From an uncultured Desulfobacteraceae bacterium (GTDB taxonomy: Bacteria; Desulfobacterota; DSM-4660; Desulfatiglandales; HGW-15): a stretch of 64,000 nt of DNA. Below the pieces are notes generated by a model, which did no database searches, was not told the DNA's origin, and worked only from the letters and a program-made list of their open reading frames with translations. Within the stretch, counting starts at the first letter, position 1; the number at the start of each line of letters is the position of its first letter. The stretch is taken from contig CAYQNR010000001.1 of assembly GCA_964418945.1 (NCBI GenBank), forward strand, positions 13,414 to 77,413. Reading direction: 5' to 3'. Positions 4,900-63,946 of the stretch are shown here, piece after piece. The position numbers and the translations under genes are program-made.

Positions 4900-5219
4900 G
4901 GTTTATCCGGTCACGGCGGTTCTTTTCAAGACGACATCTATAGTATCCCGTGGACGTGGTCTTATTTTCAAGGGTTTGGCAAACCTTTTCCTGGTGGCAA
5001 AGGCATATTCTGCCAGGGGTTCTGGTGGAGCAAACCCTTCAAACAAGCCCACTGCAGGCCTGGGGTGGAATTCTTTTTGAGATGTCGTTTTTCCAAGAAC
5101 CACCGTGACTTCAGGTCTTAATACTTTTCGAAATGATATCTAAATATTTTGGGCCATTAAGGTACTTATAATAAGCCTTAATCTTTTACTTCTTTGCGTA
5201 CTCATTAACCGGATGAAAC
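4900..5219 (+). mobile_element. MITE-like composite element, copy A (variant cargo module)
   Basis: The right arm and TIR (GCGTACTCATTAACCGGATGAAAC) match the other copies. The left end GGTTTATCCGGT is interrupted by a ~200-bp module with imperfect 29-nt inverted arms at 4910-4938 and 5081-5109. Confidence 0.7.
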
Positions 5220-5244
5220 TTTATTTATTAATCACACATCAGCT

Positions 5245-7177: not shown

Positions 7178-7433
7178 AAAACCTGCCCCCTCTTTGATTC
7201 AATATAAATGAAATTACTTTACGCCGGTTGTTTATCACTTTCATTGGTGTATGACAAGAATTATCATGTACTATCTTCTCTCCTCTTAACTTTGATTTGT
7301 TTATGCCAGGCTGGGTGAGGCCTAATCTTTTTGACAAAGATGTTGCCGTTTCACCCAATTCACGAACTGCCCAATAACAAAATACACTTCTCGGTTTTAT
7401 AATCGTTCCCTCCCCCGTTTAAAAGTACAAAAC

Positions 7434-10434: not shown

Positions 10435-10779
10435 TTTGATCCGGTTAATAAGTACGTAAACAAATAAACGATTAAACCTTATCCGCCTTCGCAGAAGACC
10501 ACGGGTTTACCCGTGGGGCTCCATTATAAGTACCTTAATGGCCCATGGGGCTCTCTTTTAAGCACCGAAAACATTAACAGCATGCGAATTACGTAAGGTG
10601 CCACCCAGGCGGGCGGAATACTTATGAGATATTAGAAAATTCTCGAGTCCGGCCAGATCCGGAAAAGGCTACCCGCCCGCCTCGTCTGGTTTTGTGCGCG
10701 GTCAGTGCCCATAAACGAGTTCGCCGCTTAAAGAGAGCCCCATGGGCCATATAGCGCAAAATATCTTAGATATCATTAT
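10435..10779 (-). mobile_element. MITE-like composite element, copy B (inverted; one TIR missing)
   Basis: One TIR is TTTGATCCGGTTAATAAGTACG. It carries the hairpin segment CCACGGGTTTACCCGTGG and the inner module at 10540-10748 bounded by GGCCCATGGGG/CCCCATGGGCC. Homology on the far arm stops at about 10779 with no TIR. Confidence 0.75.
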
Positions 10780-19043: not shown

Positions 19044-19104
19044 GGACATGATTCTATGACAACAGGATCTTTCCCGGCTTAGTATCTCCATCCGGGAATT
19101 TTTT

Positions 19105-19435
19105 AGTTAATCCGGTTAATGAGTACGCTAGTTAATGATATCTAAATACTTTGCTCTATATGGCCCATGGGGTTCTCTTTTAAAAGGCGAACTCGCTTAT
19201 GTGCAATGACCCTGCACAAAACAAGACGAGGCGGGCGGGTAGCCTTTTCCAGACTTGGCCGGACTCGAGAATTTTGTGTTATCTCATAAGTATTCCGCCC
19301 GCCTGGGTGGCACCTTACGTAGTTAGCATGCTGTTAATATCTTCGCCGCTTAAAAGAGAACCCCATGGGCCATTAAGGTACCTGTAATAAGGTTTGATCT
19401 TTTTCTTCTTTACGTACTCATTAACCGGATGAACC
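19105..19435 (+). mobile_element. MITE-like composite element, copy C
   Basis: TIRs AGTTAATCCGGTTAATGAGTACG ... CGTACTCATTAACCGGATGAACC. Inner module at 19162-19371. No hairpin segment in the right arm. Confidence 0.8.
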
Positions 19436-19571
19436 AATCTTTATCACTATTCAGGAACATAGGCTGTGGACATTTAGACTATAGTCGATAGCGCAGGGGA
19501 AGACCTAAAGCTAAATAGACTGCCGCCTATTCCACCTGATATAAAAGCAATCCTTTTGTGAGGGAGTCTAA

Positions 19572-21474: not shown

Positions 21475-21558
21475 GTCATTCGAGGAACAAACACGCCGGC
21501 CTAACTGACTTTCTTGCGTCTACCCTGTATCTACACATCCAGGTTGACAGATACTTTT

Positions 21559-22118
21559 GCTTCATCCGGTTAATGAGTGCCCTAGTTAATGATATCTACA
21601 TGTTCTGCGCTATATGGCCCATGGGGTTCTCTTTTAAGCGGCGAACTCGTTTATGTGCAATGACCCTGCACAAAACAAGACGAGGCGGGTGGGTAGCCTT
21701 TTCTAGACTTGGCCCCACTCGAGGATGTTCTATTATCTCACAAGTATTCCGCCCGCCTGGGTGTCACCTTACGTAATTAGCATGCTGTTAATATTTTCGC
21801 CGTGTAAGAGAGAGCTTCATGGGCCATTAAGGTACTTATAATGGAGCCCCACGGGTAAACCCGTGGTCCCATTAAAATACCCGTCTTTCCATCCTCCGTA
21901 GCCCGTCCTCCGCAGTGGCCTGCTACGGAGGATGGACAGGCTACTGCGGAGGACGGGCGCCTCCGGCTACGACGCGGTTATCCGCCTGAACTGGGGGCGA
22001 CATCGCGCCGTAGCAAGCCATCATTTGCGCATTCAACCACGGGCAAGCACGTTGTCTTCTGCGAAGGCGGATAAGGTTTAATCCTTTACTTCTTTACCTA
22101 CTCATTAACCGGATGAAA
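21559..22118 (+). mobile_element. MITE-like composite element, copy D (fullest form, 560 bp)
   Basis: Contains TIRs, the inner module at 21616-21825, hairpin CCACGGGTAAACCCGTGG at 21849-21866, a 170-bp third module at 21867-22036, and a second hairpin CCACGGGCAAGCACGTTG at 22037-22054. Confidence 0.85.
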
Positions 22119-22197
22119 CTTACTTTTTGTGAATTGGCTTCACTTTTATCCTATGATATTATATAATATTTTGAACAAACAAGGAGATGATTAAACA

Positions 22198-29334: not shown

Positions 29335-30422
29335 GGGACGCTCTTTAATAATTTAAAAACTTATCTTTCAAGAGAATAATTACCCTCTTTTGCGATTGAT
29401 TCTCCCCGTTCAACGGAAAATCCGACACCAGCTAAACTCATCTCTAATTTTTTGGCCAGGGATGTATGAGACAGGCCCAATTCCCTGGAAGCCCAAAAAC
29501 ATAAAAGACTCCTCGCCTTTACTTTTCTGTCCTGTCGCCCCTTTGAAAAAACTTCATCCGGTTTCATCCCTAGTACTTCCGAAACCCTCTTGGCTATACC
29601 ATCCAGATCATATCCTTTCCGCCTAAGTCTATGCCTTCGCTCATAGTGTTCCTCAGATTGTGAAATGACCGAATCAACAAAATCAGAATCCCCCAGGATT
29701 CTCTCATCACTCATAATATGAATACCACCCTTCAAAATTTCTCGGGCTTCAGTCCAACCACCAAGACTGCGGATTAATCCACCACCGGTCAATTGTTTCT
29801 TTCGGCCTTGGGTAAAACCTTCTTTAACAAAGGATTCATATTCTTCCCTGGCTTTACTCTTGCTTTTACTAAAATAGCCGAGAACGTAATCAGTATCCTG
29901 CCATTTACTTTCCGTTTTACCCATTAAAGTGCTATGCCCGCAATATTTATAGCTCTTCAATTCATCAAGCGTTTGAACAATTCCTGATCGAATAGGATTC
30001 AGATGAATATATCGGACCAATTCTTTAAGATACCCATCTTCCTGACAGATTATAGATTTGTACCTGTTCTGAAATAATTGACCACTACGTTTATGTCGGC
30101 GGTTAAATCTGATAACATAACCAGTAAGCAAACGTCTCATGAGTCTGGATAACGGCACCGTTCCGGTACGAAAAAGAAAATGTGCGTGATTAGACATGAA
30201 CGCCCACGCATAACAGGTTGTCTGCGTTGTATTACATAGGTTCTCAAGTCGTTCGATAAGATCCTCACGATCTTTATCGTTTCGGAATATCTTCCTGCGT
30301 TCTATCCCCCGAATCATGACATGGTGTAGAACACCTGGAGCATCAAGTCGTGCTGTTCTAGGCATATTTCTTTTTTAATATCGCCATCCTACAATGTCAA
30401 TTAAATTATTAAAGAGCGTCCC
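29335..30422 (-). mobile_element. Y1/HUH transposase gene bracketed by perfect 22-bp inverted repeats
   Basis: GGGACGCTCTTTAATAATTTAA at 29335-29356 is the exact reverse complement of TTAAATTATTAAAGAGCGTCCC at 30401-30422. The pair encloses the single ORF 29361-30365. Confidence 0.75.
29361..30365 (-). CDS. IS200/RAYT-like Y1 (HUH) transposase with C-terminal DnaA-C-like HTH domain
   Basis: N-terminus MPRTARLDAPGVLHHVMIRG, HUH motif SNHAHFLF and catalytic-Tyr region VRYIHLNPIRSGIV. The C-terminal SLLCFWASRELGLSHTSLAKKLEMSLAGVGFSVERGE is HTH-like. Confidence 0.8.
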   Translation of the reverse strand: MPRTARLDAPGVLHHVMIRGIERRKIFRNDKDREDLIERLENLCNTTQTTCYAWAFMSNHAHFLFRTGTVPLSRLMRRLLTGYVIRFNRRHKRSGQLFQNRYKSIICQEDGYLKELVRYIHLNPIRSGIVQTLDELKSYKYCGHSTLMGKTESKWQDTDYVLGYFSKSKSKAREEYESFVKEGFTQGRKKQLTGGGLIRSLGGWTEAREILKGGIHIMSDERILGDSDFVDSVISQSEEHYERRHRLRRKGYDLDGIAKRVSEVLGMKPDEVFSKGRQDRKVKARSLLCFWASRELGLSHTSLAKKLEMSLAGVGFSVERGESIAKEGNYSLER

Positions 30423-30437
30423 CTTTTGTCACTTTTG

Positions 30438-31181
30438 TCACTTTTCCTTAACTGCCCTATATCTTTCCAACTGTTCCGCAGTAAGGATACTGGAGAGGCC
30501 CTCTTCAAAGGTCTTTTTTGTCTCAGCCAAATCACCCCTGTATTTTTCCAGGCATTTCCTCCTTTCCTCTTCATTCTCCTCCATTAAGGTTCTTATCCTT
30601 TCTTCCTGTTCCTGTGAAAGATCCAAACAGTCTTTCAAGGGGTCAATAAACCATCTATAATCTTTCTGGAAAGGCTTTACGTCGGGTGACCCCGGGACAG
30701 GGGAATGCTCGGGTATCCACCGTGGAGGCATCTGCTCGGGGACATCCTTTGGACGACCTTGTTGTTCAGGGGCCCTTTGAGAATGCGCTTGTCCTCTTGG
30801 AAATCTGTCCCGGATATCCTTCATCCTCTGAACCAGTTTATCCAATTTATCTTTTTGCTCATCAGTCAGTCTATCCCTTATAGATTCAAAGGTCTGTTTG
30901 TTGATCTCCTCTATTTCAGGGAAGACCCTACGGCCGAGGGAAAAAATCTTTTCCTGGGATTCCCTCACGATCTTTTCAATTTCGGCCCTTTGATCATTCG
31001 TTAAATTAAGGTCATCTGAAAACCTCCCTGACACTATCTGGACCCTTTCAGATACCGGAGGGCCTCCGGCTTCAAATTTTTCCACCCGCTTCTTATAATA
31101 GACAACGGTCCCCAGGGACCCCGCTAATGCCCCTACAATTAAGAGAATACTGACTCCGGCGGCAAGTTTTAATTTATCCAT
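30438..31181 (-). CDS. Periplasmic LTXXQ-motif (Spy/CpxP-like) protein
   Basis: N-terminal TM/signal segment and four LTxxQ-type repeats (LTNDQRAEI, LTDEQKDKL, LSQEQEERI, LTAEQLERY). Last gene of the ECF sigma operon. Confidence 0.65.
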   Translation of the reverse strand: MDKLKLAAGVSILLIVGALAGSLGTVVYYKKRVEKFEAGGPPVSERVQIVSGRFSDDLNLTNDQRAEIEKIVRESQEKIFSLGRRVFPEIEEINKQTFESIRDRLTDEQKDKLDKLVQRMKDIRDRFPRGQAHSQRAPEQQGRPKDVPEQMPPRWIPEHSPVPGSPDVKPFQKDYRWFIDPLKDCLDLSQEQEERIRTLMEENEEERRKCLEKYRGDLAETKKTFEEGLSSILTAEQLERYRAVKEK

Positions 31182-32751: not shown

Positions 32752-33114
32752 GGTTCATCCGGTTAATGAGTAGGTAAAGAAGTAAAGGATTAAACCTTAT
32801 CCGCCTTCGCAGAAGACAACGTGCTTGCCCGTGGTTGAATGCGCAAATGATGGCTTGCTACGGCGCGATGTCGCCCCCAGTTCAGGCGGATAACCGCGTC
32901 GTAGCCGGAGGCGCCCGTCCTCCGCAGTAGCCTGTCCATCCTCCGTAGCAGGCCACTGCGGAGGACGGGCTACGGAGGATGGAAAGACGGGTATTTTAAT
33001 GGGACCACGGGTTTACCCGTGAGGCTCCATTATAAGTACCTTAATGGCCCATGGGCCATATAGCGCAAAATACTTAGATATCATTAACTAGCGTACTCAT
33101 TAACCGGATGAAAC
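32752..33114 (-). mobile_element. MITE-like composite element, copy E (inverted; central site empty)
   Basis: By eye, one half is identical to the reverse complement of copy D, including the 170-bp third module at 32835-33004. The central palindrome GGCCCATGGGCC (33046-33057) is uninterrupted. Confidence 0.85.
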
Positions 33115-43343: not shown

Positions 43344-43716
43344 GGTTCATCCGCTTAATCAGTACGGTAGCTAATTATATCTAGATACTTTGCGTTACAT
43401 GGGCCATGGGGTTCTCTTTTAAGCGGCGAACTCGTTTATGTGCTATGACCCTGCACAAAACAAGACGAGGCGGGCGGGTAGCCTTTTCCAGACTTGGCCG
43501 GACTCGAGAATTTTGTGTTATCTCATAAGTATTCCGCCCGCCTGGGTGGCACCTTACGTAGTTAGCATGCTGTTAATGTTTTCGTCCCTTAAAAGAGAGC
43601 CCCATGGGCCATTAAGCTACTTATAATGGAGCCCCACGGGCAAGCACGTGGTCTTCTGCGAAGGAGGATAAGGTTTAATCTTTTACTTCTTTACGTACTC
43701 CTTAACCGGATGAAAC
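43344..43716 (+). mobile_element. MITE-like composite element, copy F
   Basis: Degenerate TIRs GGTTCATCCGCTTAATCAGTACG ... CGTACTCCTTAACCGGATGAAAC. Inner module at 43401-43610. The right arm carries hairpin CCACGGGCAAGCACGTGG. Confidence 0.8.
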
Positions 43717-47279: not shown

Positions 47280-47601
47280 GGTTCATCCGGTTAATGAGTA
47301 CGGAAAGGACTTTATATAAATACTTGGTTTGGCCCATGGGGTTCTCTTTGCGACAGGCGAACTTGTTTATGTGCAAGGCGCGGGCAATAAGCCGGACTAG
47401 GCGGGCGGCGGGCTATTGGAATAATATACCAGGACCGGAAGTCCGGCTATCATCTCAGAAGTTACCCGCCCGCCTGGCAGGCACCTTATGCTATTATCTT
47501 GCTTCTAACCTTTTCGCCGCTGCAAAGAGAGCCCCATGGGCCGAATATCACCAATCTTGCTATAGTATTATCATTAAGTGTGCTCATTCGCCGGATGATC
47601 C
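47280..47601 (+). mobile_element. MITE-like composite element, copy G (subfamily 2, filled)
   Basis: The arms are nearly identical to copy H. A variant inner module at 47331-47542 is inserted in GGCCCATGGGCC. The element fills most of the glyS-metV divergent intergenic region. Confidence 0.85.
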
Positions 47602-53060: not shown

Positions 53061-53182
53061 GGTTCATCAGGTTAATGAGTACGGAAAGGATTTTATATAA
53101 ATACTTGGTTCGGCCCATGGGCCGAACATCACCAATCTTGCTATAGTTTTATCATTAAGCGCACTCATTTGCCGGATGATCC
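53061..53182 (+). mobile_element. MITE-like element, copy H (minimal 122-bp form, empty central site)
   Basis: GGTTCATCAGGTTAATGAGTACGG ... GCGCACTCATTTGCCGGATGATCC around the 20-bp palindrome GTTCGGCCCATGGGCCGAAC. It lies between hypF and hypC. Confidence 0.85.
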
Positions 53183-60731: not shown

Positions 60732-60992
60732 CCATCACCCGGGGGCAGGTACCCGTGGGGAAACGACCCTTGGGGGAGTAAAGAGAAAAAATAGGGGCGA
60801 TGTTGTTCGTCGCAATGATGTATTGTTTACGGATCTGCAACTGAGCACTGACTTGTTAGAATCATGGATAATAGAGGGGGCATGCCTGGCGTCCTACCCG
60901 CCCCCGTATTGAGCTCATGGGGATACCGCTGCAAAAAGCCTTCATTTGTGGAGAGATGAACAGTCGAAAATATGGGGGTCGCGTCTGTACTC

Positions 60993-61067
60993 CTGACAAA
61001 TTCCGTATTAATCATCTATCTACAAGTAGTACTAAATTAAGATACGTGAAGAATGGAGACCTGACCC
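60993..61067 (+). promoter_or_regulatory. Conserved promoter/operator-like block, copy 1
   Basis: About 75 nt, with roughly 80% identity to 63872-63946. It reads CTGACA-N18-TATCTA and then the shared block CAAGTAGTACTAAAT...CGTGAAGAATG. Confidence 0.45.
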
Positions 61068-63468: not shown

Positions 63469-63871
63469 GATTTTAACCCCCTATCCAATGTTTTACAATT
63501 GAGAGGTCTCAGGTGCGCTCTCACGCAAAACAGCCTCCTCCAAAATCACGAGCGGGCCTTTATCTGAGCCTAGCCTGTTTTCAACCGCAGAGCCCGCTCA
63601 GGAAAAACTGTGACAATAACTTAAACCTGGCCTAACAAGTTAACGGCCCATAGCTAACATTTGTTGGGTGAGGTAAGGTGAGGAGATGAGAGCTCCCTTT
63701 TTTGGGGCCTAAGTATAGGTGATTTGGTCCTGCGTGTCAATGATAAAGTCGACGCATGATGTGGTAATCCTCCATTTTGCCTGGAAATCAGATTGATGAG
63801 TGGAGGGCATTCAGAGGTGGGGAAGGTACATCTGGGGCCATATCTTTGTGAAAAGGATGACAGTTTCACTC

Positions 63872-63946
63872 TTGACAGATTTCAGATTAATGATTTATCT
63901 ACAAGTAGTACTAAATAAAAATGCGTGAAGAATGAAGATCTGAGCC
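63872..63946 (+). promoter_or_regulatory. Conserved promoter/operator-like block, copy 2
   Basis: TTGACA-N18-TATCTA plus the same downstream block as 60993-61067. It points toward sequence beyond the window end. Confidence 0.45.

Follow-up and report, generated by a model that had tools for sequence, protein, structure and literature searches.

A non-coding, MITE-like module inserted at palindrome centres in an uncultured Desulfobacteraceae bacterium, with tips resembling the ends of TIRYT-class Y1 transposase units

A 64,000-nt stretch of DNA from an uncultured Desulfobacteraceae bacterium (the window, to which all coordinates refer) carries several copies of a short repeated module, one of which lies, together with its immediate flanks, at 19162-19371. 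The module is a GGGG...CCCC unit of approximately 196-202 bp with an imperfect inverted arm of 23-26 bp at either end. In the copy at 19162, all parts of which are given on the + strand, the left arm GGGGTTCTCTTTTAAAAGGCGAA (19169-19191) is the more conserved, while the right arm TTCGCCGCTTAAAAGAGAACCCC (19342-19364) is C-rich and more variable. Outside the arms lie the left half (GGCCCAT, 19162-19168) and right half (ATGGGCC, 19365-19371) of a host palindrome, the former being target sequence that forms part of an outer element, the latter likewise flanking the module. An internal hairpin, CTCG..GTGCA[ATGACCC]TGCAC..CGAG (19192-19230), follows the left arm, its structure poorly kept across copies. 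The 5' half of a GC stem, AGGCGGGCGG (19229-19238), is nearly invariant in both module subtypes (A and B, see below) and in a copy from another organism (L001); the 3' half, CCGCCCGCCT (19295-19304), is also kept in copies found independently of our search pattern. The 56-nt region closed by this stem (19239-19294) is almost wholly different between subtypes A and B, and further small insertions are located within it. A conserved block GGGTGGCACCTTACGTA..AGCATGCT..TTAAT (19305-19341, with GGGTGGCACCTTACGTA at 19305-19321) leads up to the right arm; its palindromes TACGTA and AGCATGCT occur in subtype A only. A preliminary description of the locus had reported this arrangement of terminal stem, hairpin, GC stem and conserved blocks from the letters of the DNA, and our analysis bears it out, with a terminal stem of 23-26 bp.

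The module arms follow the pattern GGGG[CT]TCTCTTTTAAGCGGCGAA, and the arm motif occurs 7 times in the window where 0.00 occurrences are expected. Five full copies are present, all of them intergenic. In addition to that at 19162, subtype A copies are found at 10540-10748 (- strand), 21616-21825 (+) and 43401-43610 (+), and a fifth, divergent copy of subtype B is located at 47331-47542 (+). By direct reading, the copy at 21616 (copy D of the preliminary description) has 20 Watson-Crick pairs in its terminal stem alongside 5 of the G-U type and 1 mismatch; the sequence of its GC stem is GGCGGGTGG. Both readings agree with those previously reported. A consensus scan, the only method by which they were detected, places a small hairpin resembling a terminator (GGCCC-ATG-GGG followed by a T-run) at each junction between module and host palindrome, at 19162-19174 (+) and 19371-19359 (-), both pointing into the module.

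Each window copy sits inside a larger repeat with ends close to GGTTCATCCGGTTAATGAGTACG. Around the copy at 19162, this outer MITE-like element (MITEs being miniature inverted-repeat transposable elements) spans 19101-19447 (+), with ends of approximately CCGGTTAATGAGTACG at 19112-19127 and 19413-19428; other outer elements with ends GGTTCATCCGGTTAATGAGTACG are located at 53061-53182, 21555-22131 and 47280-47601, the subtype B module occurring in a B-type outer element. Two empty sites are present in the window: GGCCCATGGGCC (33046-33057), within ATGGCCCATGGGCCAT of an A-type outer element, and GTTCGGCCCATGGGCCGAAC (53112-53123), in the B-type outer element at 53061-53182. Three further empty sites were found in fetched loci outside the window. 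As outer elements lacking the module read GGCCCATGGGCC, and filled sites read GGCCCAT-GGGG...CCCC-ATGGGCC with an exact boundary, the module has been inserted exactly at the AT (CATG) in the middle of a perfect palindrome of 16-20 bp that belongs to the outer element. The host palindrome is lengthened by the insertion, not broken. Because the target site is palindromic, it permits a target duplication of 0, 2, 4, 6 or 8 bp. The L001 copy, recovered from a deltaproteobacterial metagenome-assembled genome, lies in a different palindrome, GTCGTAGT-AT-GGGG...CCCC-AT-ACTACGAC (flank GTCGTAGTAT), and therefore only duplication of AT (2 bp) or no duplication is possible there.

The copy sample rests on a scan of sediment metagenomes that yielded at least 116 loci. 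Using nhmmer, at least 148 copies were retrieved from these metagenomes, 116 of them full length and 82-83 of them distinct sequences, and grouping of the copies by BLAST of their far flanks gave approximately 102 loci. A scan of GTDB-representative contigs returned a single copy, L001. The copies fall into subtype A (approximately 52 loci, mean pairwise distance 11%) and subtype B (approximately 24 loci, 7%). The arms evolve 3-6 times more slowly per site than the loops. Conservation of the motif CCGCCCGCCTGG..G.CACCTTA is in part an artefact of the search pattern; in the 7 copies found without the exact pattern, the motif is kept to at most one mismatch or is unscorable. No match was found among PLSDB plasmids by blastn, and scans of IMG/VR with the module core and with the ends of the Y1 transposase unit described below returned none.

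Each subtype is tied to its own type of outer element, and in nearly all copies the orientation within that element is constant. This suggests that most copies were probably amplified passively along with the composite. One could go further and suppose that the module is not independently mobile at all, but an internal segment of the composite from which the 'empty' versions arose by palindrome-mediated deletion. The fixed orientation would fit, and the inverted GGCCCATGGG junctions could allow a precise deletion. However, the flanks of the module fall into at least six unrelated contexts, among them those of L001 (another palindrome in another organism), L029/L080, L016 and two B-type hosts. 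This shows independent insertion, and the divergence of the subtypes follows the type of host element. We consider the deletion account highly improbable.

The outer elements are themselves mosaics, with a nesting depth of at least four modules. Some outer-element copies are bordered by 7-9-bp AT-rich direct repeats, ATTAATA at 53061/53182 and ACTTTT(T)G at 21555/22131; these duplications point to the outer element being a conventional DDE-type MITE. Two more modules are seen nested in the outer element (43618-43659; 21849-22054; 32817-33022; 10497-10516). One is a 42-bp unit with the insertion point TTATAAT^AAGG; the other is a GC-rich unit of approximately 190 bp, inserted within the 42-bp unit at CCACGGG, with CCACGGG on both flanks. 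Hairpins of 39 bp and 23 bp are found within some copies of the module itself. The copy at 47331-47542 and L019 (237-495) represent the same genomic locus, the downstream flanks being 99% identical and the modules otherwise identical, with the difference that in L019 GGCGGGCGGC is followed by an additional palindromic insert of 39 bp, GCCCTTCGACGTTGCTCAGGGCCGTGAGCTTGTCGAACG. The same insert is found in L017 and L060, and this mini-hairpin is thus a presence/absence polymorphism between samples. A truncated outer element at 5137-5231 lacks the left half and the CATG centre, its central palindrome being reduced to TTTTGGGCCATTAAGG.

Several assignments to known kinds of sequence were considered for the module and rejected. 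Although subtype B can be read without interruption, indels shift the frame in subtype A, which contains in-frame stops, leaving no conserved open reading frame. Direct reading disposed of a sigma-54-like promoter at GGCACC..TGC, where the spacing is wrong, and of an attC-like site, as the GTTRRRY core is lacking. A Tn3-like assignment, suggested by the GGGG tip and CGAAAAC, does not hold, since the module sites do not admit a 5-bp duplication.

The preliminary description had proposed that the module is a structured RNA or a single-strand intermediate, on the grounds that substitutions in the stems favour G-U pairs in one sense. A structured RNA would imply that the + sense transcript, either as a cis-acting mRNA element or as a small RNA, is selected for its fold, and hence tolerates G-U pairs. 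For the copy at 19162 the predicted fold is strong for its composition (DNA fold -49.5 kcal/mol, z -6.8, for the + strand), and blocks are conserved between the subtypes. However, the - strand folds as well or better (-51.8 kcal/mol, z -7.8). Scanning with the Rfam 15 covariance models gave 0 matches at the gathering score in the window, and at E ≤ 10, run on both subtypes, only a chance match to a long non-coding RNA (E = 0.31), leaving the module with no Rfam match at any threshold. RNAalifold, applied to 80 copies and to each subtype, found only the terminal and GC stems to be stable, with a covariation term of -0.99 kcal/mol, and its predictions for the interior disagree between subtypes A and B. 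Across the 80 sequences the named structure is 90% paired, with the inner hairpin helix at only 76.6%, and the GC stem shows 0 double changes and no covariation; the internal helices show no covariation, being either invariant or paired in about 77% of cases. Almost all double changes fall in the terminal stem and in the flank helix, the latter being the host palindrome, which differs between outer-element types. A protein that binds the inverted repeats would account for these changes equally well. The same holds for the differences that separate subtype A from subtype B, which include 2 true compensatory changes (T:A>G:C and A:T>C:G), 1 G-U, 1 A-C and 1 bulge.

The genomic setting also gives no support to an RNA. 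Where the flanking genes are co-directional, the module has the same orientation in 13 cases and the opposite in 15, and of 55 scorable loci, 22 lie between divergent and 5 between convergent genes. No promoter-like site was found within the module.

The G-U argument itself was examined using 76 copies, one per locus, with a neighbour-joining tree and Fitch parsimony. Within the stems of the element, 54 events lead from a Watson-Crick to a G-U pair and 30 to an A-C mismatch (p = 0.012); for the terminal stem alone the counts are 35 and 21 (p = 0.08). G-U variants also occur in more loci (61 copies, against 32 for A-C; Mann-Whitney p = 0.02), and the loops are strand-symmetric (C>T 65 vs G>A 73; A>G 79 vs T>C 74). 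These observations speak for selection on a + sense fold. Against this, the whole G-U excess stems from C>T changes in the right arm (24 events at 8 sites) compared with G>A in the left arm (9 events), and the other three pair classes give 7 G-U and 10 A-C events. The right arm has accumulated 53 events, about double the 28 of the left arm (p = 0.007). When distinct variant types are counted, 21 are G-U and 20 A-C, and stem-breaking transversions are equally widespread, three of them occurring in 11, 11 and 8 loci. An apparent preference of the whole-element RNA fold energy for the + strand (64/83 copies) was dropped as evidence, since most of it goes back to a single T:G pair of shared ancestry. 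Once this pair is neutralised, 31 loci have the better stem on the + strand and 36 on the - strand. The subtypes then disagree, A tilting to the + strand (28 against 15) and B to the - strand (21 against 3). We take this to be a modest asymmetry of subtype A that is class-specific, and not a family-wide signature of pairing in one sense. The strand-asymmetric bias of the preliminary description is reproduced only weakly; restricted to a single mutation class and differing between the subtypes, it does not suffice to establish an RNA. We regard a structured RNA as very unlikely, and the module as very probably mobile, MITE-like DNA as opposed to an RNA gene.

The single-strand intermediate, for which the G-U argument is statistically weak, receives indirect support from another source. 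Approximately 10 kb from the copy at 19162, the window encodes a 334-residue Y1/HUH tyrosine transposase of the TIRYT type (29361-30365, - strand), a candidate for a trans-acting mobiliser. The protein matches Pfam Y1_Tnp (8e-14) and, below the cutoff of 80 bits, the NCBIfam family of REP-associated tyrosine transposases (RAYT; REP_Tyr_transpos, 1.3e-18, 67 bits), and has a weak C-terminal helix-turn-helix similar to DnaA_C. A PDB sequence search with the protein gave no match. Scanning with Pfam, which covered 39 window open reading frames out of the 49 that reach at least 180 residues, detected no other transposase. The gene is flanked by a perfect 22-bp inverted repeat, GGGACGCTCTTTAATAATTTAA (29335-29356, +), whose partner lies at 30401-30422 (-). 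In 10/10 places read, the gene forms a single locus. Its protein family is very large and strongly conserved, with at least 8000 candidates at E ≤ 1e-10; the best 120 matches are 76-100% identical, and named sources include Deltaproteobacteria, Thermodesulfobacteriota and Patescibacteria.

Most Y1 homologues from other assemblies share their ends, GGGACGCTCTTTAATAATTTAATTGAC on the left and GGGACGCTCTTTTAAAATTTA on the right. The right end of the family, GGGACGCTCTTTTAA, and the module tip, GGGGCTCTCTTTTAA, are identical at 13/15 positions, and GGGnCnCTCTTTTAA is common to the terminal repeats of the family and the module. Only 4 sites in the window come within 2 mismatches of the family right-end 15-mer (0.22 expected), and these are exclusively ends of the Y1 unit and arms of the module. 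As the module tips resemble the ends of a Y1/HUH unit, a route through single-stranded DNA is plausible but unproven.

Short tandem repeats resembling the first bases of the inverted repeat are seen just outside the repeats of Y1 units: GTGACAAAA x2, GGAAGC x3, GGATGCGT x3 or x2, GGTGGAAG x2 and GGGAAGT x2. The sites are 30423-30441 in the window, approximately 1927-1944 in L128, 214-235 in L132 and 1574-1589 in L133, and downstream of 3031 in L129. L132 and L133 are apparently the same locus, with 3 and 2 units respectively, and the tandem array therefore seems dynamic. A remnant of a second TIRYT C-terminal helix-turn-helix region was located by tblastn in an intergenic spacer at 7260-7400 (-), with 45% identity over 47 residues. 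An unrelated pair of 79-bp direct repeats, 84% identical, is found near the 3' end of the window (60989-61067 and 63868-63946).

On these grounds our preferred and probable reading is that the module is a non-coding, non-autonomous mobile DNA of the MITE kind, whose own moves may have been catalysed in trans by a TIRYT-class Y1/HUH enzyme. A number of observations weigh against the involvement of such an enzyme. The likeness to the Y1 unit is limited to the first 15 nt, with the rest of the arm and the interior unrelated, and the module tip agrees with the window's own Y1 repeats at only 11/15 positions in an ungapped comparison. No dispersal of the repeat belonging to the Y1 unit is seen over approximately 0.9 Mb, and no autonomous 0.6-6-kb unit with the module arms was found in approximately 0.9 Mb. 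DDE transposons, unlike IS200/IS605, typically have long terminal inverted repeats. The palindromic sites leave the length of the target duplication ambiguous, and module orientation bears no relation to local GC skew (43/39), unlike what is reported for IS608 and ISDra2, although neighbouring copies are co-oriented in 16/22 pairs (p = 0.05). Taken together, orientation relative to genes, to GC skew and between neighbours yielded nothing usable. To our knowledge, no experiment has demonstrated transposition by any TIRYT. A search for the same arms spaced 0.26-6 kb apart likewise gave no autonomous element; a 465-bp arm pair in L094 proved to be two adjacent elements.

An alternative is an ordinary MITE, in which a cut-and-paste DDE transposase recognises the 26-bp inverted repeats in double-stranded form and leaves a short palindromic target duplicated, the likeness to the Y1 ends being coincidental or convergent. 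Long inverted arms, small size and the occurrence of both filled and empty sites constitute the classical signature of MITEs, and the palindromic target permits a duplication of 2, 4, 6 or 8 bp, for which AT, CATG, CCATGG or CCCATGGG would be the tentative candidates. The compensatory changes between subtypes (T:A>G:C and A:T>C:G) fit a single protein that binds two ends, and the spread of disruptive mismatches to 8-11 loci implies that pairing is not required. The 7-9-bp duplications of the outer element, furthermore, indicate that DDE-type MITEs are active in the source genome. Set against this are the lack of a DDE transposase among the 39 window open reading frames scanned, the lack of a larger unit with module arms noted above, the L001 copy, which rules out a duplication longer than 2 bp, and the 13/15 tip identity with the Y1 family end, which is unlikely to arise by chance. 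We consider an ordinary DDE-mobilised MITE rather unlikely. Within the mobile-DNA interpretation, the Y1 route taken by itself falls somewhat short of an even chance, and an unseen DDE partner is a lesser possibility.

If a TIRYT-type Y1/HUH enzyme such as that encoded by the single-copy gene at 29361-30365 is indeed responsible, it would act in trans on the module tips. By analogy with IS200/IS605 and RAYT/REPIN, one strand would be nicked and would travel as folded single-stranded DNA, leaving no long target duplication. The moved strand may fold into a panhandle, to which the palindromic flanks would add length. Tolerance of G:T pairs would then be limited to the moved strand, and this could be one source of the mild asymmetry of subtype A. 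In a more specific and speculative form, which we put forward as doubtful, the module is the non-autonomous partner of TIRYT, in effect a 'giant REPIN' of which one strand would leave as a panhandle and enter a hairpin-forming palindrome at its apex, with a duplication of 0 or 2 bp.

The closest published parallels for the proposed Y1 link are the TIRtrons, or TIRYT-associated families of terminal inverted repeats (TIRs), described by Di Nocera, De Gregorio and Rocco in 2013 (PMC3733652) and placed in subclass 2.1 by Quentin et al. in 2018 (PMC6006769). These reports describe TIRYT genes with GGGG-type TIRs and dispersed TIR families; the enzymes are RAYT-like Y1 proteins of subclass 2.1 with a DnaA_C/helix-turn-helix tail, and their mechanism is not established. 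As there, we observe a RAYT-like Y1 gene with a C-terminal helix-turn-helix, flanked by long inverted repeats starting with GGGG, and dispersed non-coding repeats in the same genome with TIR-like ends arranged as inverted pairs. The tip of the Y1 unit, GGGGACGC, matches the published consensus GGGGWSAS at 7/8 positions (PMC3733652). In contrast, the published repeats are copies of the TIR itself, as singles, dimers or clusters (PMC3733652), whereas the module matches over approximately the first 15 nt only and has a conserved interior of approximately 150 nt between its arms. The module tips, GGGGTTCT and GGGGCTCT, do not fit GGGGWSAS (PMC3733652), and the repeat of the Y1 unit is itself not dispersed here.

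Other systems show partial resemblance. As in REPIN-RAYT systems (Bertels and Rainey 2011, PMC3116915; Ton-Hoang et al. 2012, PMC3333891), a single-copy Y1 transposase accompanies hundreds of intergenic, hairpin-forming, non-autonomous repeats; there a single-stranded DNA hairpin is the proposed substrate, and mosaic or nested repeats occur, as in BIMEs. However, the module has no GTAG/CGTC tag, and its arms are not self-complementary, unlike REP arms, which are imperfect palindromes of 20-40 nt around a short spacer. It is also approximately 200 bp long with a 150-nt interior, and copies of the dispersed repeat do not border the Y1 gene. IS200/IS605 elements and PATEs would have in common with the module a Y1/HUH enzyme, the possible absence of target duplication and strand-specific chemistry on single-stranded DNA, with G:T tolerated on one strand only. 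Their ends, in contrast, are separate subterminal hairpins on the same strand and insertion occurs 3' of a 4-5-nt target, whereas the module ends are mutually inverted repeats, insertion is at a palindrome centre, and module orientation gave no signal of a link to the replicating strand. MITEs that fold as RNA (Correia/NEMIS, ERIC, RUP and Nezha; PMC3733652) are likewise intergenic, of high copy number and 100-300 bp in size with inverted repeats of 15-30 bp, and a long hairpin is possible if the module is transcribed. They differ in having a defined duplication (e.g. TA) and a known or suspected DDE partner, and neither palindrome-centre nesting nor Y1-shared tips are traits of these families.

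The module thus has the generic features of MITEs, with 23-26-bp TIRs on a unit of 196-202 bp, no coding capacity, many dispersed copies and both filled and empty sites. Judging from L001, its target duplication is at most 2 bp; its arms are conserved relative to the loops, and its copies are mostly co-amplified with their host element. It lacks the defining traits of REP/REPINs and of IS200/IS605 PATEs, and shares those of the TIRYT-associated TIR families only in part. We class it as a new family within a known kind, unusual for its nesting at palindrome centres and its Y1-like tips. At face value, it adds one more small mobile-repeat family to an uncultured sulfate-reducer-like bacterium; what sets it apart is insertion, precise to a single base, at the centre of another element's palindrome, nesting at least four deep, and a tip in common with TIRYT, a class with thousands of near-identical relatives across phyla and without an established mechanism. 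Should the Y1 link hold, these loci, with their defined ends, defined target and empty sites, would be testable substrates for this class of enzyme. The 'giant REPIN' form of the model, if true, would mean that each insertion makes a new and longer palindrome, explaining the Russian-doll nesting throughout the genome, and the filled and empty sites would provide a first view of how the widespread TIRYT transposases move DNA.

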